Positions 2,014 to 61,247 are shown, counted from the stretch's first letter. The stretch is DNA of 64,000 bases from an uncultured Actinomycetota bacterium (GCA_963708625.1 CAVPSV010000004.1:321960-385959), one strand, 5' to 3'. The notes: generated by a model not told the origin, from the sequence alone. Translations and numbers: made by a program.

Positions 2014-2868
2014 CTAGGTCGTCAGCGTCGCCGCAACCTGGCGGGTAGGGGCGAGCCAGTCCAGCCACTCGTCCAGACCGTCGCCGCGGGTGGCGGAGAC
2101 CGGCAGGATCTGCGCGCGCCGGTTGACCAGACCCACGTCGTGCTCGAACCGGTCGGCGTCGAAGTCGACGTAGGGCAACAGGTCGATCTTGTTCAGACGA
2201 CCACGATCGAGGCCGCCGCGAAGATGTGCGGGTACTTCAGCGGCTTGTCCGCGCCCTCGGTCACCGACATGATCACGACTCGGGCGTCCTCGCCGAGGTC
2301 GAACAGCGCCGGGCACACCAGGTTGCCGACGTTCTCGATCAGCACCAGGCCGTCGTGCGGGTCGAGCCGGCGCAACGCCGGTCGCACCATCGTCGCGTCG
2401 AGGTGGCACCCGGACCCGGTGTTGACCTGCAGCACCGGCGCACCCGCGGCGGCGATCCGGTCGGCGTCGAACGTCGTCTCCTGATCGCCCTCGATGACGC
2501 GCACCGGCACCGAACCCGCGAGCGCGGTGATCGTGCGCTCCAGCAGCGTCGTCTTGCCCGAGCCGGGTGAACTCATCAGGTTGACGGCACGCACGCCGCG
2601 GCCCGCAACCAGGCTGCGGTTCTGCGCGGCGAGCTCGTCGTTCTTGGCGAGTATCCGGGTCTCGAGCGTCAGCGTCTCGGTGTCGCGGCTGTGCCGTGGG
2701 TGTGGCCGTCGGCGTGCGGCGTGAGTATGCGTGTGCGGCCGTCGTCGGCATGCGCGTGGGTGTGGCCGTCCGCATGTGCGTATGCGTGTGCCCGTCGGCA
2801 TGGCGTGTGCGTACCGGATCGACGATCCGGGCGCCGGCATCGTCGCCACAGCCGCACGTCGCGCACAT
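2014..2868 (-). pseudogene. hypB: hydrogenase nickel-incorporation GTPase HypB, reading frame broken at least twice (frameshifts or sequencing indels)
   Basis: N-terminus [10 protein letters not shown]...HADGHTHTH (frame of ORF 2014..2946). His-rich segment plus GTPase core [11 protein letters not shown]...KPLKYPHIF (ORF 2193..2849). C-terminus [13 protein letters not shown] (back in the first frame). A third frame (2669..2866) also reads His-rich [13 protein letters not shown]. Confidence 0.8.
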
Positions 2869-3203
2869 CAGCGACTCACCTCGACCGACAGAATGCGCAG
2901 TTCCTCGCCGGCCAGCACCCGGACGTCCGAGCTGCCGCACCCGCACAGCAGGATCGGGTCCTCGACGACGAACTCCTCACCGCAGGTGACGCAGTGCGCC
3001 CGCCCGGGTGGCTCGTCGATGACCAGCGTGGCGCCGTCCGCGGCGGTGTCGGCGGCCGCCAACTCGAAGCAGAACCGCAGCGCATCGGCGGACACGCCGG
3101 ACAGCCGCCCGACCTCGAGCCGGACCTCGCGCACGGTGCGCTCGCCGGTGCGCGCGGTGATCGTCTCGATGACGCTCTCCGCGATCGCCAACTCGTGCAC
3201 CCG
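2868..3203 (-). CDS. hypA: hydrogenase maturation nickel metallochaperone HypA
   Basis: V/MHELAIAESVIETI... with CxxC...CxxC zinc motif (CVTCGEEF...CGCGS). GTG start preceded by AAGGTGG. Its stop overlaps the hypB ATG (TGATG). Confidence 0.8.
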   Translation of the reverse strand, partial: RVHELAIAESVIETITARTGERTVREVRLEVGRLSGVSADALRFCFELAAADTAADGATLVIDEPPGRAHCVTCGEEFVVEDPILLCGCGSSDVRVLAGEELRILSVEVSR

Positions 3204-3385
3204 GCCACCACCTTCGCGCTGGATCTGGTCGTAGAACCTCACCATACGAGCGCGCACGCCTGGGTTGGAGAGCCGAAAAACCTCGATTCCGGGAATCACC
3301 GATTCTCTCCAAAACGGTCCGCCGATCGCGCGAACCGTTCTACGGTCAAGTGAACTCTCGGCTGTCGCGCGAAAGGCGATGCCCC

Positions 3386-4460
3386 ATGACGACCGCCACA
3401 GAAGCCCCTGTACTGCACGTTCTCTGGATCAACGCCGGGCTCAGCTGCGACGGCGACTCGGTCTCGCTGACCGCGGCGACCCAGCCCAGCATCGAGGAGA
3501 TCGTGCTCGGCGCGCTGCCGGGCCTGCCGAACATCCAGGTGCACTGGCCGCTCATCGACTTCGAGTGCGGTCCGGAGACCGGCGCCGACAACTTCATCGA
3601 GTGGTGGTGGAAGGCCGACCGCGGCGAACTCGAGCCGTTCGTCCTCGTCGTCGAGGGCTCGATCCCGAACGAGTCGATCAAGTCCGAGGGCTACTGGTGC
3701 GGCTTCGGCAACAACCCGCTCACCGGCCAGCCGGTGACGACCAGCGAATGGCTCGACCAGCTCGCGCCGAAGGCCACCGCCATCGTCGCGGTCGGCACCT
3801 GCGCCACCTACGGCGGCATCCACGCGATGGCCGGCAACCCGACCGGCGCGATGGGCGTGCCCGACTACCTCGGCTGGGACTGGAAGTCCAAGGCGGGCCT
3901 GCCCATCGTCTGCGTGCCCGGCTGCCCGATCCAGCCCGACAACCTGTCCGAGACGCTGCTCTACCTGCTCTACCAGGTCGCCGGCCAGGCGCCGATGATC
4001 CCGCTCGACGACCAGCTGCGCCCGCCCTGGCTGTTCGGCGCCACCGTGCACGAGGGCTGCGACCGCGGCGGCTACTACGAGCAGGGCGAGTTCGCCGACC
4101 GCGTACGGCCAGCCGACCTGCCTGGTGAAGCTCGGCTGCTGGGGACCGGTCGTCAAGTGCAACGTCACCAAACGCGGCTGGATGAACGGCATGGGCGGCT
4201 GCCCGAACGTCGGCGGCATCTGTATCGGCTGCACCATGCCCGGCTTCCCGGACAAGTTCATGCCGTTCATGGACGAGCCACCCGGCGGCAAGGTGTCGGC
4301 GACCGCGAGCGGCACCTACGGCAAGGTGATCCGGCGGCTGCGCAAGGTCACCGCTCGACACGCGTCGAACAAGGAACCGAAGTGGCGCCATCCGGGCCGC
4401 GAGCTGACCACCGGCTACACGCCACAGCAACTGGACTCCAGCAGGGGGAGCACACCGATG
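3386..4460 (+). pseudogene. hhyS: [NiFe]-hydrogenase small subunit, group 1h/5 type (no Tat signal), +1 frameshift near 4100; 3' end uncertain
   Basis: MTTATEAPVLHVLWINAGLSCDGDSV...GTCATYGG...CVPGCPIQPD...GGYYEQGEFA in frame 2. Continues in frame 0 as KLGCWGPVVKCNVTKRGWMNGMGGCPNVGGICIGCTMPGFPDKFMPF. Frame 0 stays open to 4649, implying a further unrecognised shift or stop. Confidence 0.8.
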
Positions 4461-4486
4461 ACCGACGTACAGGACCAGGCCCGAGC

Positions 4487-6269
4487 ATGGCGCAGCACGC
4501 CGACACCGACGTCGTGGAGATGGCGTGGGATCCGATCACCCGCATCGTCGGCAGCCTCGGCATCTACGCCAGCGTCGACTTCAAGCAGAAGATCGTGCGC
4601 GAGTGCCACAGCACGTCGTCGATCTTCCGCGGCTACAGCATCTTCATGAAGGGCAAGGATCCGCGCGACGCGCACTTCATCACCAGCCGCATCTGCGGCA
4701 TCTGCGGCGACAACCACGCCACCTGCTCGGTGTACGCGCAGAACATGGCCTACGGCGTCGCGCCGCCGCACCTCGGCGAATGGATCATCAACTGCGGCGA
4801 GGCCGCCGAGTACATGTTCGACCACAACATCTTCCAGGAGAACCTGGTCGGCGTGGACTACTGCGAACGGATGGTCCGCGAGACCAACCCGGGCGTGCTC
4901 GAACGCGCCAACAGCACCGAGGCGCCGCACGCCGGCGACCACGGCTACAAGACCATCGGCGACATCATGCGCTCGCTCAACCCGATCGAGGGCGACTTCT
5001 ACCGCGAGGCGCTGCAGGTCAGCCGCTACACGCGCGAGATGTTCTGCCTGATGGAGGGCCGCCACGTCCACCCGTCGACGCTCTACCCGGGCGGCGTCGG
5101 CACCGTCGCCGACCGTGCAGCTGTTCACCGACTACTACATCCGGCTGATGCGCTACATCGAGTTCCTGAAGAAGGTCGTGCCGCTGCACGACGACCTGTT
5201 CGACTTCTTCTACGAGGCGCTGCCCGGCTACGAGCACGTCGGCGAGCGGCGCATCCTGCTCGGCTGCTGGGGCAGCCTGAACGACCCGGCGGTCTGCGAC
5301 TTCAAGTACCAGAACATGACCAACTGGGGACGCGCGATGTTCGTCACCCCCGGCGTCGTCGTCGACGGCAAGCTCGTCACCAACGACCTCGTCGACATCA
5401 ACCTGGGCATGCGCATCCTGCTCGGTCACTCGTTCTACGACGACTGGGAGGGCTCGGGCAACGAGGTCTTCGTCGACCGCGACCCGCTCGGCAACCCGGT
5501 CGACATCCGGCACCCGTGGAACCAGCACACGCTGCCCCAGCCCGCAGAAGCGCGACTTCGACAAGCAAGTACAGCTGGACGATGTCGCCGCGCTGGTTCG
5601 ACGGCACCGACCACCTCGCGCTGGACACCGGCGGCGGCCCGCTCGCCCGGCTGTGGTCGACGGCGCTGTCCGGCCTGGTCGACATCGGCGGACTACGTGA
5701 AGGCAACCGGGCACAGCGTGCAAGTTCGAGCTGCCGCGCACGCGCGCTCAAGCCGGCGGCCAGCTACGAGTGGCAGATCCCGCAGTGGAGCAACGCGCTG
5801 GAGCGCAACCGGGCCCGCACCTACTTCCAGCTCTACGCCGCCGTGCGCCGCGCTGCACTTCGTCGAGATGGGACTGGCCGAGGTACGCGCCGGACGCACC
5901 GAGACGTGGACGCCGTTCACCGTCCCGGACGAGGCGATCGCGGTCGGCTTCACCGAGGCGGTGCGCGGCGTGCTCAGCCACCACATGGTGATCCGCGACG
6001 GCAAGATCGCGAACTACCACCCGTACCCGCCGACGCCGTGGAACGGCAGCGTGCGCGACTGCTACGGCACGCCCGGACCCTACGAGGACGCGGTGCAGAA
6101 CACGCCGATCTTCGAGGAGAACCCGCCGGAGCGGTTCAAGGGCATCGACATCATGCGGGCCGTGCGCAGCTTCGACCCGTGCCTGCCGTGCGGCGTGCAC
6201 ATGTACACCGGCAACGGCGGCAAGGTCGAGCAGGTCCACTCGCCGGCCGTCGCCGTCAAGCCGTACTGA
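4487..6269 (+). pseudogene. hhyL: [NiFe]-hydrogenase large subunit, group 1h/5 type, interrupted by about 5 single-nucleotide insertions
   Basis: L1 motif TSRICGICGDNHATCS and C-terminal L2 motif SFDPCLPCGVH. Conserved segments alternate between frames 2, 0 and 1 (shifts near 5107, 5545, 5709, 5731 and ~5850). Examples: PGGVGTVA|TVQLFTDYY, HPWNQHTLPQP|QKRDFDKQ, ATGHSV|KFELPRT|ALKPAASYEWQIPQW. Confidence 0.85.
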
Positions 6270-6270
6270 C

Positions 6271-6850
6271 ATGGACGGCCACGGACGTCCGAGCGAGCTG
6301 CCCGGCCCGCATCGAGGCGCTGCTGGACGAACTGAGCGCAACTCGGCGACCCGGCGGTCAGCGAGCGGGCCGAGGAACTCGTGGCCGCCGTCGTCACTCT
6401 GTACGGCGCCGGACTCGAACGCATCGTCGAGCTGCTCGGCGCAGCGAGCCGGACGGCGCCGAGCTGCTGCGCCGGCTGTGCCGGCGACGACCTGGTCGCG
6501 AACCTGCTGATGCTGCACGAGCTGCACCCCGACGACGTCGGACGCGCGGGTACAGGCCGCGCTGGACAAGGTCCGGCCGTACCTCGGCTCGCACGCCGGC
6601 GGCATCGAGTTTCTCGGCGTCGATGACGACGGCGTGGCGCAGCTGCGGCTGGAGGGCAGCTGCGACGGCTGCGCCGGCTCGACCGCGACCGTGCAGAACG
6701 CGGTCGAGCGGGCCGTGCTCGAGGCGGCCCCGGAAGTGGTCGAGCGTCGAGGTCGAGGGCATGGTCGAGCCGAAGCCGGCGACTGCCGGTCTGCTGCAGA
6801 TCCGGCATGCGCTGCCCGGACGGCGACTGGCTGAGGCGGTCGGCGCGTGA
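6271..6850 (+). pseudogene. NifU C-terminal-domain (Nfu-like) hydrogenase accessory protein, at least 4 frameshifts
   Basis: Segments RIEALLDEL / LGDPAVSERAEELVAAVVTLYGAGLERIVELLG / VQAALDKVRPYLGSHAGGIEFLGVDDDGVAQLRLEGSCDGCAGSTATVQNAVE / VEVEGMVEPKPATAGLLQI. These lie in three different frames. Confidence 0.55.
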
Positions 6851-6885
6851 CGCAGGCCGACCGACCCGTTCGGAGTCCTGCGCCG

Positions 6886-7506
6886 GGTGCTGCAGCCGCG
6901 CGAGCGGCCGCGGCCCGGCGAGGCGTGCGAGATGTGCGGCGAGCCGATCGCCGAGCCGCACAGCCACGTCGCGAGCCTCAGCGAGCGGCGGCTGCTGTGC
7001 ACCTGCCGCGCCTGCTACCTGCTGTTCACCGCCCAGGGCGCCGGCGCGCCGGCGGCTGCGCGCTGTGCCGGAGCGGGTCGTGCTGGCCAGCGACTTCACC
7101 TTCACCCAGGCGCAGTGGGACGACCTGGCGATTCCGGTCGATCTCGTGTTCCTGTTCCAGCAGAGCGACGTCGACGGACGTCGAGGCCCCGACGGCGCTC
7201 GTCGCCTGCTACCCGAGCCCGGCCGGCGCGACCGAGTCCGAGCTCGACCTCGTCGGCCTGGGCCGACATCGTCGCGGACAACCCGACCCTGGCCGACGTC
7301 GAGCCCGACGTCGAGGCGGTGCTGGTCCGCCGCAACGGCGAGCGGCGACTTCACCTGCCTCGTCGTGCCGATCGACGCCTGCTACGAACTCGTCGGCATC
7401 GTGCGCCAGTACTGGTCCGGCTTCCAGGGCGGCGCCGAGGTGTGGCAGCGCATCGACGACTTCTTCGCCCGGCTGCACACTCGAGCCCGCGGCCCGACGG
7501 GGCTGA
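6886..7506 (+). pseudogene. conserved Cys-rich hydrogenase-associated protein, frameshifted
   Basis: GEACEMCGEPIAEPHSHVASLSERRLLCTCRACYLLFT then RAVPERVVLASDFTFTQAQWDDLAIPVDLVFLFQQSDVD... then GDFTCLVVPIDACYELVGIVRQYWSGFQGGAEVWQRIDDFF. Each piece is in a different frame. Confidence 0.45.
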
Positions 7507-7507
7507 C

Positions 7508-9570
7508 ATGCCTGAGCTCGAGTTCGCCTGCACCGGCGCGCACCCGGACCATCGCGCGGCCGCGCCGACGATCTCGCTGCGCCTGCACATCACCGAAACG
7601 ACCGGCGACGACCGGTGCACGCGCTCGTCGCTGCGCACCCAGATCCGCATCGAACCGCGCAAGCGCCGCTACGACGACACCGAAGCCGAGGCGATGCGCG
7701 ACCTGTTCGGCGAGCGGGCACGGTGGGGCGACACGCTCAAGCCGCTTGCAGCTCGCCTTCGTCAACCAGGTGGTGCCGAGCTTCACCGGCGAGACCGACG
7801 ATCGACGTGGCGCTGCCGTGCAGCTACGACTTCGACGTCGCGGCGAACAAGTACCTCTACGCGCTCGACGACGGCGAGATGCCGCTGCTGCTGCTGTTCA
7901 GCGGCACCGTATTCACCGTCGGGCGCGAACGGCTTCTCGGTCGTAGCCGGTGCCCGTGGGACAAGGAGGCCACCTTCCGGCTGCCGGTCGGCGTCTGGAA
8001 GCAGACGATGCAGCTGCACTTCCCCGGCACGCGCCTGGCTGCGGCTGAGCGAGCGAGACCTTCGACGCGTTGCACCGCTACCGCACCGACCAGCAGCTGC
8101 GTCAGCTGGGACGACGCGATCGACCGGCTGCTGAAGGAGGCCGAGCGAGTGAGCGCGCACGCGTGCACGGCACTCGCGGCGCATGCGATCGCCGACACCG
8201 TGCTGTTCGAGGGCTACATGCTCTACCCGTATCGCGCCAACGATCCGAAGAACCGGGTGCGCTGGCAGTTCGGCGTGCTGGCGCCGCCCGCGTTCGCCGC
8301 CGCGCGACCCGTCCGAGCGCGTCGTTCCTGCAGGCCGACTGCCTGCTCGAGGGCGCGATGTCGAGCTCGAGCGTGCAGGTGCGGTTCCTGCACGTGCAGC
8401 GGCGCACGGTCGAGCGTCTCGACGGCGACGGGTTCCGCGACGTCGACTCCCTCGACGTCGGCGACGCCACCTACCTGCCGTGGGACGAGGCGGTCGTCAC
8501 GAATCCGAGACGACGTTCCGGCTCGCCGACCTCGACGCGGCCGAAGCAGACCACCGCGATCGCGCGCCGATGCCGCGGCCGAGATCGAGGCGCTGTCCGA
8601 CGCCGACGGAGCGATCGTCGGCCGGCTGGCCCGTGCGCGCACGCGCCGCTACCGGACGCGCTGTCGTGCGACGGCCGAGCCGCTGCCCGGTCCCTACGGC
8701 GTCCGGCGGCTGCGGCTGCGGCTGGAGAACACCACGCCATGGAGCCGAGCACTGGATCGGGTGCGCCGGACCGTCCCGACGCGCTGCGGCACGCCCTGGT
8801 CGCCGCGCACCTGCTGCTGTCGGCTGCGCGGCGGCGCGTTCATGTCGCTGATCGACCCGCCGGAATGGGCATCCGGCTACGCCGGCGGCCTGCGAGCAGA
8901 TCGGCGCCTTCCCGGTGCTGGCCGGGCCGGCCGGTGACGCGTCGATCTGTGCTCGCGTCGCCGATCATCCTGTACGACCACCCGAGGTCGCGCCGGAAAG
9001 CGCGTCGCAGTTCTGCGACGCGACCGAGATGGACGAGATGCTGACGCTGCGCACGCTGACGCTGACCGACGAGGAGAAGCGACTACGTGCGCGGCAGCGA
9101 CGCCCGCGGCGCGGCACTGGTCGACGAGGTCGACAACCTGCCGCCCGAGCTGATGGACCGCCTGCACGGCGCGATCCGCTCGATGACGCAGCGTGGCCCG
9201 GCCCGCGGCGGCGACGCCGGCGGCCGTTGCGCCGGACGAGACCCCGCCGTTCGCGAATGCTCCGTTCCTGAACGCGGAAGAGGACGCACGCTTCGACCCG
9301 GAGACCGACGTGGTCATGGTGCAGGGCGTGCCGCTGTCGAAGGGCGCGTCGGTGCGGCTGCGCCCGGGTACGCGGCGCACCGACGCGCAGGACATGTTCC
9401 TGGACGGCCGCAGCGCCACCGTCGAGGCCGTGCTGTTCGACGTCGACGGCGCTACCGCACCTCGCGGTCACGCTGGACGACCTGGTCGAGCTGTCCGAAC
9501 TGGGCTACAACCCGCACGGCCGCTTCCTGTACTTCGCGCCGGACGAGGTCGAGCCGATCGAAGGTGGACG
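7508..9570 (+). pseudogene. one or more conserved hydrogenase-cluster proteins of unknown function, heavily fragmented by frameshifts
   Basis: Frame-hopping conserved-looking segments: MPELEFACTGAHPDH...IRIEPRKRRYDDTEAEAMRDLFGERARWGDTLKPL; LPCSYDFDVAANKYLYALDDGEMPLLLLFSGTVF; RCPWDKEATFRLPVGVWKQTMQLHFPG; LFEGYMLYPYRANDPKNRVRWQFGVLAPP; TEMDEMLTLRTLTLTDEEKRL; ALVDEVDNLPPELMDRLHGAI; VAVTLDDLVELSELGYNPHGRFLYFAPDEVEPIEGG. Gene boundaries not resolvable by eye. Confidence 0.35.
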
Positions 9571-9571
9571 C

Positions 9572-10106
9572 ATGATGCGCATCCTGGTCGCCGGCCTCGG
9601 CAACATCTTCGAAGGCGACGACGGCTTCGGCGTCGAGGTCGTGCAGCGACTGCGCACAGCGGTCGTGGCCCGAGGGCGTCGAGGTGCGCGACTTCGGCAT
9701 CCGCGGCGTGCACCTGGCCTATCAACTGCTCGAGCCCTACGACCTCGTCGTCATCGTCGATGCGGTCGCGCGCGGCGAAGCGCCGGGCACCCTCTACGTC
9801 ATCGAGCACGGCCCGGACCATGACGCCGCCGAACCGGCCGACGACGCGGCGCTGATGGACGCACACGACCTGGCCCCGGACGGCGTGCTCGCGCTCGTCC
9901 CCCGCCTCGGTGGCACGCTGGGCCGCGTCGTCGTGATCGGGTGCGAGCCCGAATCGATCACGCCGGACATGGCGCTTTCACCGGCAGTCGCGGGTAGCGT
10001 CGACAAGGCGGCCCAACTCGTGACCGACCTCGTCACCGACCTCGTCACCGACTCGTCACCGACCTCGTCACCGACCTCGTCACCGACCTCGTCACCGACC
10101 TTGTGA
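9572..10106 (+). pseudogene. hupD: hydrogenase maturation endopeptidase (HupD/HyaD/HycI family), frameshift near 9655 and inside the C-terminal repeat
   Basis: MMRILVAGLGNIFEGDDGFGVEVVQRL then (other frame) VEVRDFGIRGVHLAYQLLEPYDLVVIVDAVARGEAPGTLYVIEHGP...VVVIGCEPE. The C-terminus runs into an (LVTD)n / (SSPT)n repeat. Confidence 0.7.
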
Positions 10107-10110
10107 CGGA
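10017..10110 (+). repeat. tandem 12-nt repeat (ctcgtcaccgac) x~7 with one 11-nt unit, at the 3' end of hupD
   Basis: Direct reading gives ctcgtgaccgacctcgtcaccgacctcgtcaccgaCTCGTCACCGAcctcgtcaccgacc.... It is translated LVTDLVTDLVTD then, after the short unit, SSPTSSPTSSPT. Confidence 0.8.
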
Positions 10111-10303
10111 CCCGACGACCAACATCGTGCAGAGCGCACGGCCGGGTGCCATGCCCGGCACCGAGATACGAGTGGGAGGCGGTTGACCATGGGTCGATTG
10201 CTGGCGTACCGGATGATGCTCGGTGCCGCGGCCAGGATGTCCGTGTCGTTCTCCGACATCCGCCGTTACTTCCGAATGCGCAAGATGTGAGGGTGAGCGC
10301 GTC

Positions 10304-10534
10304 ATGTGTCTAGGCATTCCCGGACGAATCGTCGAGGTCCTCGACGGCGGCGACGTCGCGCTCGTCGACGTCGCCGGTGTCGTGCGCGAGATCAACCTGG
10401 GCATCTTGGACGGGCCGTACGACCCTGGCTCCTACATCCTGATCCACAGCGGCTTCGCGCTGGAGCACATGTCGGCCGAGCAGGCCGCGGACGCGCTGCA
10501 GGTGTTCAGCGACGGATCGATGACCTCGGGCTGA
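10304..10534 (+). CDS. hypC: hydrogenase maturation factor HypC
   Basis: MCLGIPGRIVEVLDGGDVALVDVAGVVREINLGIL...YILIHSGFALEHM, 76 aa, intact. Confidence 0.85.
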   Translation: MCLGIPGRIVEVLDGGDVALVDVAGVVREINLGILDGPYDPGSYILIHSGFALEHMSAEQAADALQVFSDGSMTSG

Positions 10535-10901
10535 AACTCCGATCCGGCACGTCGGTGCCGAGGATCAGCGACGACGCCGCGCGCTCGGGCGCGATGGCTT
10601 CGGGCACCGGCTCGGCAGCTGATTCACGCCGGTGAGGCTTCAACGGCGTCGCCGCGTCGTCCGGCTCCCACCGGTGCGCGTCGTCGGTCAGTCCGAGCAG
10701 GTAGGTGACGGTGCAATCGAGCGCCGTGGCCAGCTCGGGCAGCTTCGCCACATCCAGTCCGGTGCCGTGTTCGAGACTCGACAGCGCGCGGTTGGTGGTG
10801 TGCAGCCCGCACCGCCCGAGCCGGGTCACCACCTGCTTCTGGGTCAGCCCGAGGTCGTCGCGCCGCTGCCGCAGCCGCTGCGTGATCAACAGATGGCGCA
10901 T
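10506..10901 (-). CDS. XRE-family helix-turn-helix transcriptional regulator
   Basis: MRHLLITQRLRQRRDDLGLTQKQVVTRLG...LSSLEHG is an HTH_3 motif. The 3' end overlaps hypC convergently. Confidence 0.55.
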   Translation of the reverse strand: MRHLLITQRLRQRRDDLGLTQKQVVTRLGRCGLHTTNRALSSLEHGTGLDVAKLPELATALDCTVTYLLGLTDDAHRWEPDDAATPLKPHRRESAAEPVPEAIAPERAASSLILGTDVPDRSFSPRSSIRR

Positions 10902-10927
10902 CGAGATATCGACGTCCGAGGCGATGG

Positions 10928-11218
10928 TCACGAGTCACGCTCCCGCGCTTGACTGAGCGACGACATCTCCGCCAGCGGATAGATGTCGTAGCGAGCGAAA
11001 TTGAAGATCGGTGCCCGGGCCAGCAGCCGTTCGAACTCCTCGTGCGAGTCCACGTCGTAGATCCAGGCGCCGCCGTGCGCGCCGACGATGTGATAGCGGG
11101 CGTCCACCTTGCCCTCTTCCTCGAGGGTGGAGCCGTACTGCGCCATCCGCCCTACCGCCTGGGCCATCTCCCGGGACAGCAGGTTGAGCTCCATCCGCCA
11201 CAACACCAGGAACTTCAT
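10928..11218 (-). CDS. muconolactone-isomerase-like small protein
   Basis: 96 aa, MKFLVLWRMELNLLSREMAQAVGRMAQYG..., ferredoxin-like alpha+beta pattern typical of the MLI family. Confidence 0.35.
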   Translation of the reverse strand: MKFLVLWRMELNLLSREMAQAVGRMAQYGSTLEEEGKVDARYHIVGAHGGAWIYDVDSHEEFERLLARAPIFNFARYDIYPLAEMSSLSQARERDS

Positions 11219-11955
11219 GACGCCAACCGTTCATTGGTCACGGCGAGCTGCCAGCCGGTGCACTCACGCAGCCGGTGCAGGTTCTCCTCACAGAGGCGTT
11301 CGCAGACGGAGTCCCAGTGCAACGCGAGCCAGTCGCCCTCGACCGGACTCGCGACGAAGCCGATACCGTCGATCGCGCGGCGAACTCGCTCGGGTTCGGG
11401 CTCGGCAAGGTGCAGTGCTCGTCCGTCCCAGCGCAGGCGTTGCGACGACACGACGACGTGGTCGCCGTCGGTGTCCACGACCTGGCCCCAGCGAATGCGG
11501 CAGTTGTCGAGGACGTGCAGGGCGTGGGCCGGTAGCTCGCCGAGCAGGCGCGTCCACGGGTAGACGCCGAAGACGTGGAACCCGTGCGTGGGCGCGGCCT
11601 CCGGCAGCAAGTCCGCAGTGAGATGCCCCCAGTAGCGCCCGGCCTCCGCGCCGATGCGGTCCAGCAGCTTCACCCCGAAGTCGGCGCGATCGACCGCATC
11701 GAGCAGCGGACCACCGGTCCAGTACGCGCGCATCACCCGCTCGTCGAGTGGATCGGCGACGCCGGCCATCTCGGCAAGCAACGCCGCATACGGCCACGCG
11801 CCGGAGAACCGGCGCGCGATCGCGTGCACATCGGCGTTCGTCTCGCCGGAAACGCCCAGATCGAACAGCGCCTGCGTCTCGGCCGGCCCGCAGTAGCCCA
11901 GCTCGTTCGGTGCATAGGCGTACCGAGCGAAAAGCACCAGTCCGGGCGCGGACAT
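11215..11955 (-). CDS. conserved hypothetical protein
   Basis: 246-aa intact ORF, 4-nt overlap with the upstream gene. No motif recognised. Confidence 0.45.
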   Translation of the reverse strand: MSAPGLVLFARYAYAPNELGYCGPAETQALFDLGVSGETNADVHAIARRFSGAWPYAALLAEMAGVADPLDERVMRAYWTGGPLLDAVDRADFGVKLLDRIGAEAGRYWGHLTADLLPEAAPTHGFHVFGVYPWTRLLGELPAHALHVLDNCRIRWGQVVDTDGDHVVVSSQRLRWDGRALHLAEPEPERVRRAIDGIGFVASPVEGDWLALHWDSVCERLCEENLHRLRECTGWQLAVTNERLAS

Positions 11956-11963
11956 GGTCTGGC

Positions 11964-13098
11964 TCAGGTCCGCGCTGACTGACCGACGAGTTCCGCCGTC
12001 TCACGATGCAGCCGGCCGAAGTTGTAGTACGCCGCGCAGGCGCCTTCGGGCGACACCATGCAGGTGCCGATCGGTGTCTCGGGCGTGCATGCGGTGCCGA
12101 ACACCTTGCACTCCCACGGCTTGATCACGCCCTTGAGCACCTCACCGCACTGGCACGCCTTCGGGTCGGCCACCCGGATGCCGGGCATCTCGTACCGCAA
12201 TTCGGCGTCGAACTCCGAGTACTTGTCGTTCAGCTTGAGCGCGCTCTGGCTGATGAATCCCAGACCCCGCCATTCGAAATGCGGACGCAGCTCGAACACC
12301 TCTGCCAGTAGCGCGATGGCCTGCGGATTGCCTTCATCGCGCACGACCCGGCTGTACTGGTTCTCGACCTCGCAGCGCCCCTCGCGAATCTGCGCCAGCA
12401 GCATGTGCACCGACTGCAGGATGTCGAGCGGTTCGAAGCCGGCCACCACGATCGGCTTCCCGTACACCTCGGGCACGAACCGGTACGGCCGGTTGCCCAC
12501 GACGGTCGAGACATGGCCAGGGCCGAGGAAGCCGGACAGGCGCAGGTCGGGCGAGTCGAGGATGGCCTTGATCGGCGGCACGATCGTGACGTGGTTGCAG
12601 AACACGGTGAAGTTCGTGACGCCGAGGTCCTTGGCGCGGACCAGCGTCACCGCGGTCGACGGCGCAGTCGTCTCGAAGCCGACCGCGAAGAACACGACCT
12701 GCTTGTCCGGGTTCTCGACCGCGATGCGCAGCGCGTCCAGCGGCGAGTACACGAAGCGGACGTCCGCGCCGCGCGCCTTCGCCTCGAGCAGGCTGCCCTT
12801 GCTGCCGGGTACGCGCATCATGTCGCCGAAGGAGGTGAAGATGACGTCGGGCCGTTCGGCCAGCCACATCGCGTCATCGACGCGGCCCATCGGGATCACG
12901 CAGACCGGGCAGCCCGGCCCGTGCACCAGCTCGATGTTGGGCGGCAGGATGTGCTCGATGCCGTGCCGGTAGATCGTGTGCGTGTGCCCCCCACACACCT
13001 CCATGAACTTGAACTCGTCGTCGCGCGGCCAGCTCCTTGATGGACGCTACCAGGGCACGGGCGGCAGCCGGATCGCGGAATTCGTCGACGAACTTCAT
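11964..13098 (-). pseudogene. hypD: hydrogenase maturation factor HypD, +1 frameshift near 13010-13040
   Basis: N-terminus MKFVDEFRDPAAARALVASIKEL (frame A). Then (frame B) MEVCGGHTHTIYRHG...GPGCPVCV...CNHVT, 346 aa reading to the stop. Confidence 0.8.
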
Positions 13099-13109
13099 AG
13101 TTTTGCTCC

Positions 13110-13393
13110 CTAGACGATCGCGGTGGAGTTGAACGCGGACAGTTCGTCGGTGTAGCTCTGACCCATCTGTTTCACGGCCTCGAGCGTGAGGTCGGCTTCG
13201 TGCTGATCGATCTTTGCCATTGCGAAGCCGACGTGCACGAGCACCCAATCGCCGGCGTATCAGGTTGTCCTTCGCCAGCAGGCGCACGCTGATCGTCCGC
13301 TTGATGCCGTTCACGTCCACCTTCGCCAGGTGGTTGTCGGCGTCGACGATCTCGACCACCTGGCCGGGAATCCCGAGACACATGTCAGGTCCT
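13110..13393 (-). pseudogene. hypC: second HypC-family maturation factor, single-nt insertion near 13210
   Basis: MCLGIPGQVVEIVDADNHLAKVDVNGIKRTISVRLLAKDNL then (other frame) [32 protein letters not shown]... Confidence 0.65.
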
Positions 13394-13411
13394 CTCCTCG
13401 TGCATCGACGT

Positions 13412-14520
13412 TCAGCAGATCCGCGGCAGCGGGTCACCGACGAGCATGTCGACGATCCGGCTGCCGCCGAACGGTGTGCGCAGGGCAACGATGCCCTCGG
13501 GTTCGGCGACGATCTCGCCGATGACAGCCGCGTTCTGGCCGAGCGGATGCGGCGCGCAACGCGGCGATCGCCGCCTGCGCCTCGTCCGGCGGTACGACCG
13601 CGACGAACTTGCCCTCGTTGGCGACGTACACCGGGTCGATGCCGAGCAGGTCGCACGCGCCCTGGACCATCGGCGCCACCGGGAGCAGCTCCTCGTCGAG
13701 GATGACCGCGACCGATGCGTCCTGGGCCAGCTCGTTGCAGATCGTGCCGAGTCCGCCGCGCGTCGGGTCGCGCATCCAGCGCGTGTTCGGGGCGGCGGCG
13801 AGCAACGCCTCGACCATCGTGTGCACCGCGGCCGTGTCCGACTCGATCTCCGCTTCGATGTCCAGGTCACCGCGGGCCATCATCACCGACATGCCGTGGT
13901 CGCCGAGCGTCCCGGACAGCACCACCCGGTCGCCCGGACGCACCAGGTGCGCACCCAGTTCCCGGCCGGCCGGCATCGACGCCGATGCCCGTGGTGGTGA
14001 TGTAGAGCCCGTCCGCGGCGCCCTTCGGCACGACCTTGGTGTCGCCGGTGACGAGCAGCACGCCGGCGTCGGCCGCGGCTGCGGCCATGTCGGCGACGAT
14101 CTCCTTGAGTTCGGCGATCGCGAATCCCTCGGCGATGACGAAGGCTGCGGACAGCCACTGCGGCTTCGCGCCGCTCACCGCCAGGTCGTTCACGGTGCCG
14201 TGCACGGCGAGCTGGCCGATCGAGCCGCCGGGGAACCGGCGTGGCGAGACCACGAACGAGTCGGTGCTGAACGCCAGCCGCTCACCGGAGGGCAGCGTGA
14301 GCAGCGCGCCGTCACCGAGCTGTTCCAGCTCGGGGTTGCGGAACGCTTCGAGGAACACCGCATCGACGAGAGCCGCGGACGACTTGCCGCCCGCGCCGTG
14401 CGCGAGCGTGATCACTTCATCGATCAGCCGGGGCCGCCGCTTGCGGAAGTTCTGGATCTTCTCCAGCACGCGGTCCTCACGCGAGACGACGTCCTCGACG
14501 GGAATGATCTGACCGGTCAT
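13412..14520 (-). pseudogene. hypE: hydrogenase maturation factor HypE, at least 2 frameshifts
   Basis: MTGQIIPVED...ITLAHGAGGKSS... (13867..14520 frame). MSVMMARGDLDIEAEIESDTAAVH...GGLGTICNELA (13434..13976 frame). AVIGEIVAEPEGIVALRTPFGGSRIVDMLVGDPLPRIC (13412..13870 frame). Confidence 0.8.
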
Positions 14521-15203
14521 GCTGCGCCTCCTACGGCGCTCGACGCCACGTCGTTCGCCGATGTAGCGAGCGCGCGCTGCGTCGCGGCCCAGAGTTGGTA
14601 GCCGAGCAGCGCCTGGCTCTCCTGGATGCGGTGGATGCTCTGCGAAGCGACCACGAAACAGTGATCCACCGCGTCCGATTCGGCCATTTCGCCGCCGCGG
14701 TAGCCGGCGAAGCCGATGGTCATCAGGCCGCGTCGATTCGCTTCCCGCAGCGCGTTCATCAGATCGGCGGAGTTGCCGCTCGTCGAAAACGCGACCGCGA
14801 TGTCGCGCCCAGAGGCGTGCGCGATGATCTGGCGGGAGAAGACCAGCTCGAAACCCACGTCGTTACCGAGCGCGGTGACCACTGCCTGATCGGCGGCCAG
14901 GTTCAGCGCGGGCAACGGGCGACCACTGACCGGCTGGGCGAACAGTGCGGCGAATGTCGCCGCGTCGGTAGAGCTGCCGCCGTTGCCGAAGACGTAGAGG
15001 CGACCGCCGTGGGCGAATCGATCGGCCATCTCGCTCGCGGCGGTCAGCACCCGTTCCGCGCACGCGGCCAGAGTGGCCTGTTGCAAACCGGCGCTCTCCC
15101 GCGCCTTCTCCCGGGCTGAGGCCGCCAGATCGGCGAGCAGCGACCCCGAATCGCGTTCGTCGCCGTCGATGAAGGGATAGAGAAAACCGGTCTGTTCGCT
15201 CAT
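14517..15203 (-). CDS. SIS-domain protein (GmhA/DiaA-like phosphosugar isomerase fold)
   Basis: RLYVFGNGGSSTDAATFAALF...AVAFSTSGNS. 228 aa from MSEQTGF. ATGA overlap with hypE. Confidence 0.7.
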   Translation of the reverse strand: MSEQTGFLYPFIDGDERDSGSLLADLAASAREKARESAGLQQATLAACAERVLTAASEMADRFAHGGRLYVFGNGGSSTDAATFAALFAQPVSGRPLPALNLAADQAVVTALGNDVGFELVFSRQIIAHASGRDIAVAFSTSGNSADLMNALREANRRGLMTIGFAGYRGGEMAESDAVDHCFVVASQSIHRIQESQALLGYQLWAATQRALATSANDVASSAVGGAA

Positions 15204-15965
15204 CGCGGCCCCCCGATCCGAGTCAGGGCCGAGCCGGCGTGCACCAGCAGCAGATCCCCTGGATCGACGTCGCCGATCAGTGTGGTGTCGACGTGTTCGT
15301 CGCCCTGCGCGGTGCGCACCAGCGCGGCGCCCAACGGTCCGTCGCGGCCCACGATCACTTCCGCCGGGACGACCTTCGTCGCTGCAGGTGATGCAGACCT
15401 CGTCGGTGCAGTCGGAGTCACGCTCGACGAGCAATCCGGGATGCTCGAAACACACGTGCGTCAGCTCCCACAGCAGGTGATACATCAGTACGAAGCGGCC
15501 GGTCGCGGGCGCCAGCGGGTTGGCGTCGTCGATCCACAGCACCTGGTCGGCCGCGCCGGCCGGCGGGCGTTCGCCCGAGCCGATCCAGACGCTCAGCGCC
15601 CCCCAGGCGGGCGTGCGGCGCATCAGGTCCTGCACCGCCCGGTCGCCGGCACCGGCCACTGCGATGACGATGTCGCCAGGACGGACCGAGACTCGCGCCT
15701 GAGCGACGACGTCCCCCGAGGTGAGCGCGAATGCCGGCAGCGCCCGTTTGCCCACGATGACGGGGTGGACGAACTCGACGGCCATGTGGTGCGCGTGTGG
15801 CTCCCACTGCGGCGCGACGCACCACATGGTGGCGCCGGCGTGATAGCGGCGTGCGAGCGAGAGCGCGGCCGCGGCCAGGTCCTCGGCCAGGCCACGGTCC
15901 AGGATGTCCGGGGTGATGCCGGAAGAGACGTCCAGCTCGGGCGTCGTTACGAAATCGACGGTCAC
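15200..15965 (-). pseudogene. hydrogenase-associated protein with C-terminal HupF/HypC-like domain, frameshift near 15420-15450
   Basis: The N-terminal ~190 aa (MTVDFVTTPELDV...HVCFEHPGLL...DEVCITCSDEG) read through into the SIS gene. The real C-terminus is in another frame (15200..15421): AEVIVGRDGPLGAALVRTAQGDEHVDTTLIGDVDPGDLLLVHAGSAL, with the stop just before the SIS start. Confidence 0.45.
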
Positions 15966-18360
15966 GGTGCTACCCCCTGTTGGCGTGCATAGCCGACGGC
16001 ACCGATCACGGCTTGGCCGAGCGCGAGACCCCCGTCGTTGGGCGGGACGAGGCGGTGGGTCAGGACTCGCAGGCCGCTGCCCTCGAGGCGTCGGCGGCAG
16101 AGGTCCAGCAGCAGGACGTTCTGGAAGACGCCGCCGGTCAGCCCGACCAAATCTTGATCATGTGAATCGCATACCCGGATCGCGACCGCGGTAACCGCGT
16201 CGGCAACGGCTACGTGGAACCAGTGCGCAAGCGTGGCCGTGTCCACGCCCGCACGCAGGCCCGCCACCAGGCCGCGAACGACCGGTGCGTAGTCCAGCCG
16301 TCCGTCCTCGATCGCGAACGCCCACGGCGGCACGGCGCTGGCCGGGTCCGCGACGGCCGGGTCCGCGCCGGCGGCTGCACTCGCAGCCAAGATCTCGAGT
16401 TCGATCGCGGCCTGCGCCTCGTAGCCGATTCGCTGGCGCACGCCGAGGATCGAGGCGACGGCGTCGAAGAGCCTGCCCATGCTCGAGCACGGCACCGTCG
16501 CACGCCCGGACGTCAGCTGCGACCGGACCGCGGCGAGTTCGCGCGGCTCGCAGGCGGCAACCGGCGCCACGTCGTCATCCCACGCGACATCGCTGGCGGC
16601 GAGGTAGGCCAGCGCGGCTCGACAGGGGTTGCGCACCGCCGCGTCCCCACCGGGCAGATCCACGGTGCGCAGGTGGCCGACCCGCTCGTAGCTGGTCACG
16701 TCCGCGGACACCTGCAGGAACTCGCCACCCCAGATGGTGCCGTCGTCCCCGTAGCCGGTGCCGTCGAACGCGACGCCCAGGGCCGATACCCCGAGCAGGT
16801 TGTGTTCGGCCAGCAGGGACACCACATGTGCGTGATGGTGCTGGACGAGTCGCAGCTGCGGCTCGCCCGGCCGACCGGTGTGGCGCTGCGCCCACTCGCG
16901 GGTCAGGTACGCGGGGTGCGCGTCCACCGCGACGATCTCGGGAGCGAGGCGGTGCAGCGTGGTCAGCTGATCCACCGCGCGCTCGAAGGCGCGCAGCGTG
17001 TCGAGGCTGCCCATGTCCCCGACGTGCGCCGAGCAGAACGCGTTCGTCGCGTCCACGAGGCAGAAGGTGTTCTTCAGCTCGCCACCGACGGCAAGCGTCG
17101 GGGGCAGCGCGTGGCCCAATGGCACCGGCAACGGCGCCAAGCCACGCGAGCGGCGGATCGGCAACTCGCGGCCATCGAAGACACGCACCACGCTGTCGTC
17201 GCACGGCACGTGAATGCCACGGTCGTGGGTGAGTACGGCGTCGGCGAGCGAGGGCAATCGCCGCTGCGCGTCGATGTCGTCGAAGCACAGCGGCTCGTCG
17301 CTGACGTTCGCACTCGTCAGCACGAGCATGCCGGCGCCGGTGCGCCGGCGTCGGGCACCGGCGCGAGCAACAGATGGTGGATCGGGCTGTAGGCGAGCAT
17401 CACCCCGAGCAGCGGGTTGCCCGGCGCCACACTGTCCGCGACCGGCGCGTCCGGCCGGCGGCGGAGCAGGACTATCGGCCGGGCGCGGCTGGTCAGCACC
17501 TGAGCTTCGGCCTCGTCGATGACAGCGAGGCGGTGCGCGGTGGGCAGGTCACGCACAAGCAGCGCGAACGGCTTCTGGTCGCGCGACTTCCGCTCCCGCA
17601 GTCGTGCCACCGCAGCCGGGTCGTCCGCGCGGCAGGCGAGGTGATACCCACCGATACCCTTGACGGCGACGATCTGCCCGTCGGCCAGCGCGTGCTGAGC
17701 GTGGGCCAACGCGGAGTCGCCGACGGCTGCCGTCGCGCCGTCGCGCTCGAAACGAAGTACCGGCCCGCAGTTCGGGCAGGCGACGGGCTGGGCATGGAAG
17801 CGGCGATCGGCCGGATTCGCGTACTCGCGCGCGCAGTCGGCACACATGGCAAAGTCCGCCATGGTTGTGGCGGGCCGGTCGTAGGGCAGATCGCGAATGA
17901 TCGTCAGCCGCGGTCCGCAATCCGTGCAGGTGATGAAGGGATGGCGGTAACGGCGGTCGGTCGGGTCGAACAACTCGGCGAGGCAGTTGTCGCAGGTGGC
18001 CACGTCGGGCGGGATGAGCGTTCGCGCGCCCTCGGCCGCACGGCTGGCGACGATGCGGAACCCGCTGTCTTCGACCAGCGGTAGCGGCGTGCTGGTGACG
18101 GAGATGACGAACGCCATCGGCGGCGCATCGATGCGAACTCGGCGCTCGAACTCCGCCAGTAGCCCGGCCGGACCCTGCACCTCAGCGAAGACGGCCTCCG
18201 CGTCGTTGCCGACGAAGCCGCTGAGGCCTAGTTCGGTGGCCAACCGGTGGACGAATGGGCGGAAACCGACGCCCTGGACGACACCGGTTATCGAAAGCCG
18301 CGCCCGTTCTCGCGCTGCAGCATCCGGGCGGAAGGCGAGCGAGCGGGCCGTCGCGGTCAT
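15962..18360 (-). pseudogene. hypF: carbamoyltransferase HypF, one frameshift near 17320
   Basis: N-terminal part (17317..18360 frame): acylphosphatase VQGVGFRPFV, Zn fingers CDNCLAELFDP...CTDCGPR and CADCAREY...CPNCGP. C-terminal part (15962..17329 frame): YrdC/Kae1-like region ...VFQNVLLL.... Confidence 0.85.
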
Positions 18361-18516
18361 GTCGGCCGTTGGGCGTTGTGGTCTTGCACCGCGTCCGTGT
18401 GTTTTACGGATTCGGTGATAGGGAGAATCCCGCCGGTGCGGCAAATAGCCACTCACCCAACATAGGTAGACCGATCGTTCTCTGTCTAGACTCAATTTCA
18501 GGATCAGGAGTGCAGA

Positions 18517-39293: not shown

Positions 39294-40195
39294 CTAGACC
39301 GGGTTCGATCGCAGTGCACGCGCCTCTTCGGGGCGGCGCACCTGGACCCGCTCGCCGACGATGCGGGCTTCGAAGCTTGGCTGTGGCCGGGTGGCCGGAC
39401 CGCGCACCACGACGCCGGTGCTGAGATCGAAGATGCTGTGGTGCCACGGGCAGACGATGCAGTCGTTCTGGAGCTCGGCCGTCGTGCAGCGGCCCACCGC
39501 GGTGGGTGCAGCGATCGGCCAGCGCGACCAGCCCGGTCTCCAGACGCACGACCAGCACCGCGGTTTCCCCAGCCGCGCCGTGCAACCGGGCGCCCACCGC
39601 GGCCACCTCCGATGCCGTGCCGATGTCGGCCCACTCGGCATCCATGTGCTGGAACGCGGTGGTGTCGACGCCGACCCCGAGGGCGTAGGTGAGATGGCCG
39701 CCCAGCCACCCTCCGACGGAAAGGACGCCCGAACCGAGCAGGGCCAGCGCTACCCCGCGCGCATGACGTCCCCGACCGCGCGCCGACCAGCTACCGGCAT
39801 AGCATCCGATCGCGGTCGCGTTCGTCAGCCGCATGAACGAGTCCGACACGGCGCTCGGCGCCGCCGGTGTCGAGCCAATCGGACCAGCCGGTGACTGCCG
39901 TCGGTGCCGCGGTCAGCAGTCCGAATCCCACCAGCCGGCGGGCACTGCGCCGTGCTGCTCGGCCACCCACGATGTCGAGCAGACCCGCCGAGGCCCACGC
40001 ACCCATCGGTACCGCCACGATCGCCGGGTGTACCGCGTGGCCGATCGGCGTGCCGGAGGCGAGATCGCGCGCGCGCCCGGTGCGCACGCTGTCGGGCACC
40101 ACGGCGGCGATCCGGTCGGCGATCGCATCGAGGAACGACGCGCGTTCGATCGCGTGCGTGATGCGGTCAGCGCGGCGTGGTCTACGGTGCGGCAC
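39294..40195 (-). pseudogene. membrane-anchored (DUF2231-like) Rieske [2Fe-2S] protein, 2 frameshifts
   Basis: TM/DUF2231 part in frame of 39791..40195. Box I CTHRGGPLHDG in frame of 38305..39849. Box II CPWHHSIFDLSTG in frame of 39294..39641. Confidence 0.55.
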
Positions 40196-40291
40196 GCTCG
40201 ACTCCTACCCGCGGCGGCCCGGGCTCACACAATGCGGCCCGGCGGTGCGCAGGCGTCGGGGCCGCTGCCGCGTACGGCGTCGTGGCGGCGG

Positions 40292-41080: not shown

Positions 41081-41083
41081 GGA

Positions 41084-59417: not shown

Positions 59418-60072
59418 TTACTCGCTCATGCCCGTCTCGATCGCCCATCTGGTGAGTTCGACCTTGTTGTGAAGTTGAAGCTTTCGCAGCGTGTTCTGGA
59501 CGTGGTTCTGGACTGTGCGGTGTGAGACGACCAACCGATCGGCAACCTGCCTCGCGGTGAGCCCCTTCGCGACCAACCTCAAGATCTCCGTCTCGCGTTC
59601 GGTCAGGAGCGGGGCGTTGCTCGGTGGTCTCGGACAGCATTCGCTGGTACTCGCCCAGGACGAGCGCGGCGAGACCGGGCGAGAAGATCGCCTCCCCCTC
59701 GGCGGTGCGGCGAACTGCGTCTACCAGCCCGTCGGCCGGCGTGGACTTCACTAAGTAACCGCGCGCCCCCGCCTGCGCCGCGGCGAGGACATCGCTGTCC
59801 TCGCCGGACGAGGACAACATCAACACTCGGACTGATGGATCGGCTCGCACAATGTGAGCGGTCGCATCGACTCCGGTCATCGCGTGCAGTTGTAGATCCA
59901 TGAGAACCACGTCAGGACGGACAGCGGGTGCAACGCGTACTGCGGTCTCGCCGTCTCCGATGCATGCGACCACCTCGAACCCGGCGGCGGTCAGATCTCG
60001 TTCGACCGCCGCGCGCCAGATCGGGTGGTCGTCAACAATCATCACTCGTGTCCGCGCGGCGCCGGCCATCAC
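59418..60072 (-). pseudogene. NarL/FixJ-family response regulator, +1 frameshift in a C4 run near 59640
   Basis: Receiver domain VMIVDDHPIWRAAV...VVLMDLQL in the ORF frame. The LuxR HTH (LTERETEILRLVAKGLTARQVADRLVVSHRTVQNHVQNTLRKLQLHNKVELTRWAIETGMSE) is in the neighbouring frame. Confidence 0.75.
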
Positions 60073-61247
60073 CGCGCACCGGCAGATTCCGGGTAAGGAA
60101 CGATGATCTCCACCTCGGTACCCTCGCCAGGTACCGAGCTGAATCGGACACGACCGCCTAGTTCGGCGACTCGTCCGCAGATCGAATTCGCTACTCCTAG
60201 ACGCCCCTCGGCGAGTGCATCATCGATGCGCCCTGCGGCCATTCCGACCCCGTCGTCGCGCACCGTCACGGCAAACTCGACGCCGAGATCTTCGAGGAAC
60301 ACCCACGCACGGGCTGAATCACCGGCGTGCTGTTCGACGTTGCGTAGCGCTGCCTGAACCGCGCTGAGGACTTCGCTGGATTCGTGTGACGGCAGGTGGA
60401 TCGACGTTCCAGCCACCGACACGACGACACGGGAGGACCGAAGTGTCGCCAGTTCCGCCGCGAGATTGCGCAAGCCCGTTGGCGCGGCGACGATGGCCTG
60501 ACTCGTGATCAGCGCACGCAGGGCAGCTTCTTGTGCGGCGGCATCCCGCGCCAATTCGGCCCACTCGCCACCCGCCGCGATTCCGCGGCGATGAACGAGT
60601 CCGAGGGTTTGCAATACCCCGTCGTGAATCGACCGCGATAGCCGTTCGCGCTCGGCCAGCTTGGCGGTCTCGGCCGCGATGTGGCTACGTTCCTGCTCTA
60701 CGCGCACCGTGACCGTGGCAAGGTAGCCGCCGATGACGCCGACGATGATGACCAACAGGCCGTTCAGTAACGTCCGGCCGTCATATCCATCGCGAACGAC
60801 GACGTTCGCGATGAACTGAAGGACACCGGCAGCTCCGCCGGCCGCGGCGCCAAGGACCAATCCCATTTCTATCGCCGGGCCGGCCGCCCAGATAGAGGTC
60901 AGTGTGGGCATGCCGCCGTGAAGCTGACTAGGACGTTGCGCCAGCCTTGTGAGCAGAGTCAGGACGATGCAGATCAGGACGTCCGCCGATACCAAGATCA
61001 GCCGGTTCGCCCGGCCCTGTGCGACAACCACGGCCACGGCCGCGGTCACGGCCACCATCGCTGCGCCGACGCCGAAGGCCACCGCGGGCTTGGCATAAAG
61101 ATCGTGCCACCGCATGATGAGGTACAGGCTGAGCAACAGGGCGGCGACCCGGAATCCGACCGCGGCTCGCCACAGCGTCAGCAGAACGCCGGTGACTGGC
61201 GCCGGTGGCGAGGCCATGATCCGCACGCTAGTCGGGCACCGGCGCAT
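60069..61247 (-). CDS. sensor histidine kinase (HisKA_3 + HATPase_c), partner of the adjacent response regulator
   Basis: 4-5 N-terminal TM helices. H-box ERERLSRSIHDGVLQTL. ATPase blocks (...VRDDGVGM...GRLGVANSICGRV...). ATGA overlap with the regulator gene. Confidence 0.75.
   Translation of the reverse strand: MRRCPTSVRIMASPPAPVTGVLLTLWRAAVGFRVAALLLSLYLIMRWHDLYAKPAVAFGVGAAMVAVTAAVAVVVAQGRANRLILVSADVLICIVLTLLTRLAQRPSQLHGGMPTLTSIWAAGPAIEMGLVLGAAAGGAAGVLQFIANVVVRDGYDGRTLLNGLLVIIVGVIGGYLATVTVRVEQERSHIAAETAKLAERERLSRSIHDGVLQTLGLVHRRGIAAGGEWAELARDAAAQEAALRALITSQAIVAAPTGLRNLAAELATLRSSRVVVSVAGTSIHLPSHESSEVLSAVQAALRNVEQHAGDSARAWVFLEDLGVEFAVTVRDDGVGMAAGRIDDALAEGRLGVANSICGRVAELGGRVRFSSVPGEGTEVEIIVPYPESAGAR

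Follow-up and report, generated by a model that had tools for sequence, protein, structure and literature searches.

The [NiFe]-hydrogenases of group 1h/5 (Hhy), i.e. the high-affinity group that oxidises atmospheric H2, are recognised by two signature motifs of the large subunit, L1 (TSRICGICGDNH) and L2 (SFDPCLPCGVH), and by a small subunit without a twin-arginine signal peptide (PMC5364354). The actinobacterial hydrogenase (AH) of R. eutropha (PDB 5AA5) and the hhySL and hyp loci of Mycobacterium and Streptomyces are the closest described systems, and group 1h/5 loci share a neighbourhood that comprises genes for NifU, DUF5947 and DUF6084 proteins, hupD and hypABCDEF. We analysed a locus of this kind in a stretch of 64,000 nucleotides (the window) from an uncultured Actinomycetota bacterium (GCA_963708625.1 CAVPSV010000004.1:321960-385959), which has a G+C content of ~69% and derives from a contig of 1,911,136 bp in NCBI/ENA. 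The window has the same L1 and L2 motifs as the described systems, and its corrected proteins are unremarkable for the group; the sole difference lies in the deposited reading frames, which are broken by dozens of single-base indels. These frameshifts are real in the deposited sequence, and we consider it likely (a probability of roughly 85%) that they were caused by an error in a mixed-strain long-read consensus and not by gene decay.

Several frameshifts per gene within a functional unit are a feature of the pseudogene-rich loci of Mycobacterium leprae. Decay of that type, however, brings stops, deletions and an elevated rate of nonsynonymous substitution (dN), roughly uniformly across the unit, and none of these is seen in the window. 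In the consensus of a diploid genome, collapsed haplotypes yield spurious indels exactly at variant sites; the window differs from the diploid case in that the "haplotypes" would be co-occurring strains of a soil metagenome, and in that the effect is limited to a locus conserved enough for cross-strain recruitment. Indel-broken genes have also been documented in Nanopore assemblies, where they are related to homopolymers (Sereika et al. 2022, PMC9262707; IDEEL test). As in those assemblies, consensus indels fragment the gene calls of the window and short-read relatives are free of them, but whereas the classic long-read errors concern homopolymer length and depend on coverage, those of the window avoid homopolymers and sit at polymorphic sites with both alleles present.

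That the region at 2.0-18.4 kb is a complete group 1h/5 cluster, as already stated in a first-pass annotation of the window, is supported by motifs, by structural homology and by gene order. The L1 and L2 motifs are matched exactly (at ~4682-4717 and, near the C-terminus of HhyL, at ~6170-6205), and the corrected HhyL aligns end to end (query residues 2-569) with chain C of 5AA5 (HofG) at 1070 bits, the structure matches that follow reaching only ~150 bits. The N-terminal translation of HhyS (MTTATEAPVLHVLWINAGLSCDGDS) contains no RRxF motif and no twin-arginine signal. High-affinity oxidation of atmospheric H2 is predicted at the level of sequence. The left end of the cluster holds hypB and hypA on the minus strand, followed on the plus strand by hhyS, hhyL, the NifU-like gene, the DUF5947 and DUF6084 genes, an open reading frame (ORF) of 467 aa, hupD, a DUF6893 ORF of 33 aa and hypC, and at the right end, on the minus strand, by genes for an HTH regulator, a MIase-like protein and a DUF6390 protein, hypD, a second hypC, hypE, a SIS-domain gene, a HypC-domain gene and hypF. 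Related contigs have the identical gene order with every gene intact, and the genomes nearest to the locus are metagenome-assembled genomes (MAGs) of Jatrophihabitantaceae and other Actinomycetota. The genes are, in order:

2050..2868, minus strand: hypB, MCxxCGC start, His-rich stretch at 2690-2800; reads in two to three frames
2871..3215, minus strand: hypA; intact
3385..4460, plus strand: hhyS, small subunit; +1 insertions at 4096, 4352, 4362, 4366 and 4432
4457..6269, plus strand: hhyL, large subunit; +1 insertions at 4474, 4485, 5107, 5540, 5565, 5694, 5720, 5741 and 5842
6270..6850, plus strand: NifU-like gene; 7 frameshifts (6300-6826)
6847..7505, plus strand: DUF5947 gene; 4 net frameshifts (7050, 7175, 7256, 7342)
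7508..8148, plus strand: DUF6084 gene; 9 frameshifts, the densest section of the hot zone described below
8145..9575, plus strand: accessory ORF of 467 aa, conserved, without a Pfam family; 13 net frameshifts
9572..10186, plus strand: hupD, maturation protease with a repeat-coded C-terminal tail; +1 insertion at 9652
10189-10290, plus strand: DUF6893 ORF of 33 aa, within the clean island described below
10304-10534, plus strand: hypC; intact
10506-10931, minus strand: HTH gene; intact
10928-11218, minus strand: MIase gene; intact
11215-11955, minus strand: DUF6390 gene; intact
11964..13098, minus strand: hypD; a single +1 insertion at 13027
13113..13398, minus strand: second hypC; a single +1 insertion at 13257
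13415..14523, minus strand: hypE; +1 insertions at 13550 and 13977
14520..15212, minus strand: SIS-domain gene; intact
15212..15977, minus strand: HypC-domain gene (~255 aa); a single +1 insertion at 15368
15969..18366, minus strand: hypF; variable stretch with one frame change at ~17330, of deletion type or ambiguous

Switches of frame are evident from three-frame translation and from a frame analysis based on GC3 (the G+C content at third codon positions), the phase of which flips at matching places. In addition, we ran our own frameshift-aware protein-to-DNA aligner with the intact orthologues of L001, a contig from a metagenome of the Joint Genome Institute (JGI) that was reached via the intact HypC of the window, and of L006, a syntenic MAG locus. 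By this alignment exactly 13 genes are broken, in line with the at least 13 multi-frame genes reported at first, and six are intact (hypA, hypC and the HTH, MIase, DUF6390 and SIS genes). The number of events per gene depends in part on the type of alignment: hypB has one to three frameshifts, of which a +2 event at 2196 is robust; hhyS has one net frameshift at the protein level and five insertions at the nucleotide level; hhyL has seven, plus two at its true N-terminus (4474 and 4485); and hupD has one, plus a base missing from a tandem repeat. The corrected genes are full length, their products are 81-99% identical to the L001 proteins and, as had been claimed, in-frame stops are absent (0 in ~1,800 corrected codons).

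At the nucleotide level, the alignment with L001 over 4680-13218 yields 394 mismatches and 69 indel events, including 53 insertions of one nucleotide (C 24, G 21, A 6, T 2) and 8 deletions of one nucleotide, i.e. an insertion:deletion ratio of ~7:1. A second contig, L112, carries the comparison further to the left and adds insertions at 4096, 4352, 4362, 4366, 4432, 4474 and 4485, so that the total comes to ~75 indels relative to the closest intact relatives, ~60 of which are +1 insertions. Most junctions of the first-pass annotation are recovered, if often shifted by a few bases: 4100, 5107, 5545, ~5850 and ~13030 correspond to 4096, 5107, 5540, 5842 and 13027, the pair 5709 and 5731 to 5694, 5720 and 5741, and ~13210 probably to 13257. 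The junction at 17320 is not the clean +1 that it was taken for, but the deletion-type or ambiguous event in hypF. The +1 insertions, to which every junction reconstructed by eye had been ascribed, are indeed the dominant class (53:8), but the events were undercounted: against L001 alone they number 69 and include deletions.

The identity of the inserted bases is what points to their origin. Of 44 single-nucleotide insertions outside homopolymers, 43 add a base that occurs as an allele in intact relatives at the homologous site right next to it; 16 intact relatives served as the reference, and one or more carriers counted as a match. At least three of the 16 relatives carry the inserted base in 86% of the insertions (mean 6.8). 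The corresponding values are 58% (at least one carrier), 37% (at least three) and a mean of 2.7 for controls at random positions, and 64%, 43% and 3.0 for controls matched for flanking dinucleotide, codon junction and inserted base; the observed values were attained in none of 2,000 shuffles. Insertions of C stand before a G in 20 of 24 cases, those of G before a C in 13 of 21. For instance, the window has GTCG at 6539, against GTG or GTC in the relatives; at 7609-7615, in the DUF6084 gene, the window reads GGCGA[CG]AC[CG]GTG, again with doubled alleles; at 4362-4366 it reads GACAC[GC]GT[CG]AAC, i.e. at each of the two sites the allele of L112 together with that of L109; and at 2196, in hypB, AG and AC occur together as dinucleotide alleles. 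Doubled alleles are furthermore found at 13257 (G, T), 13550 (C, G) and 13977 (T, C). Since the inserted base is the natural allele of the neighbouring site, the consensus holds both alleles of sites that are polymorphic between strains. This result is decisive, in that it is predicted by a two-haplotype consensus and neither by real insertions nor by random read noise. The distribution of the insertions over the codon junctions 2|3, 3|1 and 1|2 (21, 18 and 12) fits a uniform expectation and that for sites of single-nucleotide polymorphism alike.

The indels are distributed unevenly along the locus. The clustering reported at first is thus real, but finer than had been described, with two sections that stand out:

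4096..9652: hot zone; ~60 single-base insertions, roughly 11 per kb
9653..13026: nearly clean island; the rest of hupD, the DUF6893 ORF, hypC, the HTH, MIase and DUF6390 genes and most of hypD

A C missing from the hupD repeat is the sole indel of the clean island, and between 13.0 and 17.3 kb there are about seven events (~1 per 0.7 kb). Indels are denser where the locus departs more from L001 and L112. The sequence is 88-96% identical to these contigs within the hot zone, 99.2-100% between 10.0 and 12.5 kb and ~97% further on, and no such insertions occur where identity is 99.2-100%. In the hypC-hypD block, 24 of the 25 codons that differ do so synonymously. Identity to this one metagenome population is thus mosaic over 4680-13218, which could come from two strains merged into a chimeric consensus or from real recombination within the hhy locus.

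The tail of hupD consists of a 12-nt tandem repeat (CTCGTCACCGAC, 8.1 copies) at 10017-10112 that encodes (LVTD)n, and it is out of frame because the third repeat unit lacks one C (~10,052). The copy number of the repeat is unlike that of L001, and the HupD proteins of L109 and L106 are shorter (172 aa) and do not have the (LVTD)n tail.

The following course of events would account for a mixed-strain consensus error. The sample would hold a strain similar to L001 and L112 together with at least one other strain, the two being identical over hypC-hypD and 5-12% divergent over hhyS-hupD, and the conserved hydrogenase locus would recruit the reads of both. During alignment or polishing, a substitution between the strains might be written as an insertion in one read set and as a deletion in the other, and a consensus path that keeps both bases would turn each such site into a doubled one (XY for X or Y), and thereby into a +1 insertion; the software step responsible for the doubling is, like the strains themselves, something we infer. 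The doubled sites would mostly be C/G wobble positions of GC3-rich genes, and the predominance of C and G among the insertions would follow because, at a high GC3, variants are mostly C/G transversions. A clean consensus would result where the strains do not differ (9.7-13.0 kb), and a nearly clean one where the reads of a single strain map, as in most of the flanking genome. Such an artefact implies that the real hhy and hyp genes of the organism are most likely intact.

The same signature was found in a second MAG. With the same aligner, ~17 close short-read contigs and MAGs gave no frameshifts at all, compared to 25 in L034 (OY969101.1, MFD04212.bin.c.6; broken stretch ~8000-10340) and 6 in L113 (ENA ERZ25039516 contig_8483; broken stretch 7000-11387, at the contig end). 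In both of these long-read assemblies, the clustered false frameshifts hit genes that are also broken in the window, namely the NifU-like, DUF5947 and DUF6084 genes, the 467-aa ORF and hhyL. Relative to its nearest short-read relative (L086), L034 has 36 single-base insertions and 7 deletions, the insertions are concentrated from the NifU-like gene to the 467-aa ORF, and all 30 of its 30 non-homopolymer insertions are doubled alleles. The pattern expected of a mixed-strain consensus, i.e. indels at polymorphic sites with the alleles in tandem, is thus present in the window and replicated in L034. Four frameshift sites coincide between the window and L034 where ~2 are expected; this is not significant, and an error tied to a fixed sequence context is therefore not supported. 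For the MFD genomes, Nanopore reads alone were assembled with Flye and then passed once through Medaka, short reads not being used for polishing (PMC12313526); for the window, too, a Nanopore-only platform is most likely.

Several points weigh against a mixed-strain consensus as the cause. Both the technology and the mixture of two strains are inferred from the deposited consensus and not from reads or coverage. For the events at 15368 (A), 17330, 39,475 and ~59.65 kb, a doubled allele could not be demonstrated. HhyL is broken in 2 of 18 MFD loci as compared to 1 of 30 others (48 loci in all), which is not a significant difference; with so few broken MFD loci, the artefact must require more than the platform and is not general in Nanopore MAGs, and its rarity fits a need for co-occurring close strains. 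The hot-zone haplotype of the window was not found in a form without insertions, the best relatives having 92-94% nucleotide identity: a scan of metagenome contigs gave nothing above 83% amino acid identity, a scan of genome contigs nothing above ~80%, and a search with the corrected DUF6084 protein no relative above 83%, and it is from these ceilings that we take no intact copy to have been found. Finally, when the substitutions are polarised with two outgroups, the changes found in L001 alone favour the third codon position (21, 18 and 85 for positions 1 to 3), in keeping with functional divergence, whereas those found in the window alone show a flat pattern (28, 29 and 25). The flat pattern could also mean relaxed selection, but it fits consensus noise at least as well; the window-unique substitutions occur in the hot zone only, and 32 of the 82 lie within 10 nt of an indel.

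Among the alternatives, generic long-read noise is the one that fares best, i.e. unpolished random insertions of the continuous-long-read (CLR) type at low coverage, with no mixture of strains, and we nevertheless regard it as unlikely. Noise of this kind would be insertion-biased and clustered, as the indels are, would spread the window-specific substitutions evenly over the codon positions, and would leave a few frameshifts elsewhere in the window, as are seen; the C that is missing from the hupD repeat is even a classic homopolymer or repeat error. Random insertions should, however, match the neighbouring natural allele in 58-64% of cases and not in 98%, and about half of them should extend a homopolymer, which is so for only 7 of the 53 (13%). 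In addition, the density of indels tracks the divergence from a related strain, which is not what a uniform patch of poor sequence would give. The suggestion of a locally low-quality assembly was thus right in kind, but its attribution to low coverage or CLR-type noise is not borne out by the inserted bases.

A genuine and very recent pseudogenisation of the atmospheric-H2 hydrogenase through real frameshifts, the other possibility raised in the first-pass annotation, is very unlikely, even though the frameshifts are present in the deposited record, affect 13 genes of one functional unit and are accompanied by lineage-specific substitutions without a third-position bias. With ~60 indels to ~80 unselected substitutions the locus is too rich in indels, bacterial mutation spectra being far less indel-rich than that. 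Mira and co-workers are said to have described, in 2001, a deletion bias in bacterial pseudogenes; the locus has neither such a bias (53 insertions, 8 deletions) nor multi-base or larger deletions, nor an association of its indels with homopolymers or repeats. Relaxed selection across the whole unit is contradicted by the complete lack of stops, by the restriction of the flat codon-position pattern to the hot zone and by the hypC-hypD block, which would be equally dispensable and yet is 99.2-100% identical to intact relatives, with differences that are essentially synonymous. The comparison of indels with substitutions in orthologue alignments, which had been proposed as a check, returns many indels, no stops and a flat substitution pattern in the hot zone alone. 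Lastly, decay explains neither why the inserted bases are alleles of the neighbouring site nor why L034, an unrelated MAG, has the same signature.

It is extremely unlikely that the extra bases are truly in the DNA because a recombination-associated process between diverged hhy alleles left the alleles in tandem wherever they mismatched and inactivated the locus, which would have had to happen independently in the L034 lineage. To programmed recoding or correction at the RNA level (ribosomal frameshifting, transcriptional slippage or deletion editing) we attach practically no weight, as its only support is the perfect conservation of the corrected frames, the sixty sites have no slippery motif or homopolymer context in common, close relatives encode the same proteins free of frameshifts, and we know of no bacterial system of such a kind.

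Taken at face value, the record would say that a soil actinobacterium has just lost the ability to scavenge atmospheric H2, which is the wrong conclusion. The feature is not biological, and its value lies in the diagnosis of false pseudogenes among long-read MAGs. In microdiverse soils, MAGs built from long reads only can hold dense and localised false frameshifts in conserved loci that are shared by strains, and the hallmark of the artefact is a non-homopolymer +1 insertion in which the base equals the alternative allele of the neighbouring site. The doubled-allele signature thereby offers a test, independent of the reads, to tell such an artefact from a real pseudogene. Mis-called fused ORFs have already entered the public protein databases, as in the case of P0061, the window's own ORF of 400 aa that crosses several frames. 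When a concatenation of three proteins was used as a query against the protein database, only long fused ORFs were retrieved, among them P0061, and no close relatives; the search pointed to L113.

Two further observations concern related sequences. Several ENA contigs encode proteins of 400 aa that comprise DUF5947 and DUF6084 (P0028-P0035), of which P0028 looks like an in-frame fusion and P0032 is clearly a frameshifted read-through of NifU and DUF5947. In L052 (Pseudonocardia nigra DSM 104088, NODE_19), a short-read isolate, the aligner gave two putative frameshifts in HhyL.

Outside the cluster the window is largely, though not entirely, free of frame breaks. The neighbouring DNA had been described as clean, which holds for 19.1-38.3 kb, where all tested ORFs have full-length Pfam domains, but not for the rest of the window, in which two genes are affected:

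39294..39849, minus strand: Rieske [2Fe-2S]-domain gene; profile positions 2-55 and 54-87 in different frames, junction ~39,475
59421..60219, minus strand: NarL/LuxR-type response regulator; receiver (ORF 59371-60219) and GerE (ORF 59421-59720) frames differ, junction ~59.62-59.71 kb

With these frameshifts at ~39,475 and ~59.65 kb, the window is best described as a low background of frameshifts plus one extreme hot zone. Frame changes hinted at by a hidden Markov model (HMM) of GC content at 42.83 kb (patatin gene) and 45.06 kb (PLD gene) found no confirmation in Pfam, and a "frameshift" that the aligner placed at 18492 was discarded, as this position is non-coding DNA upstream of a TetR gene. 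Downstream of the Rieske gene, the ORF at 38305-39290 shows an unstable GC3 phase, and of the acyl-CoA dehydrogenase middle domain it contains no more than a part. At 39766-42958, on the minus strand, five consecutive ORFs, including a glycosyltransferase, an 83-aa ORF, an acyltransferase and a 176-aa ORF, lie in one frame, two pairs of them being split by single stops (41084-41086 and 42428-42430), and the patatin gene upstream shows a change of GC3 phase near 42,834; the arrangement in one frame and this phase change could be due to chance or to further errors. The histidine kinase gene at 60072-61286, beside the response regulator, looks intact.

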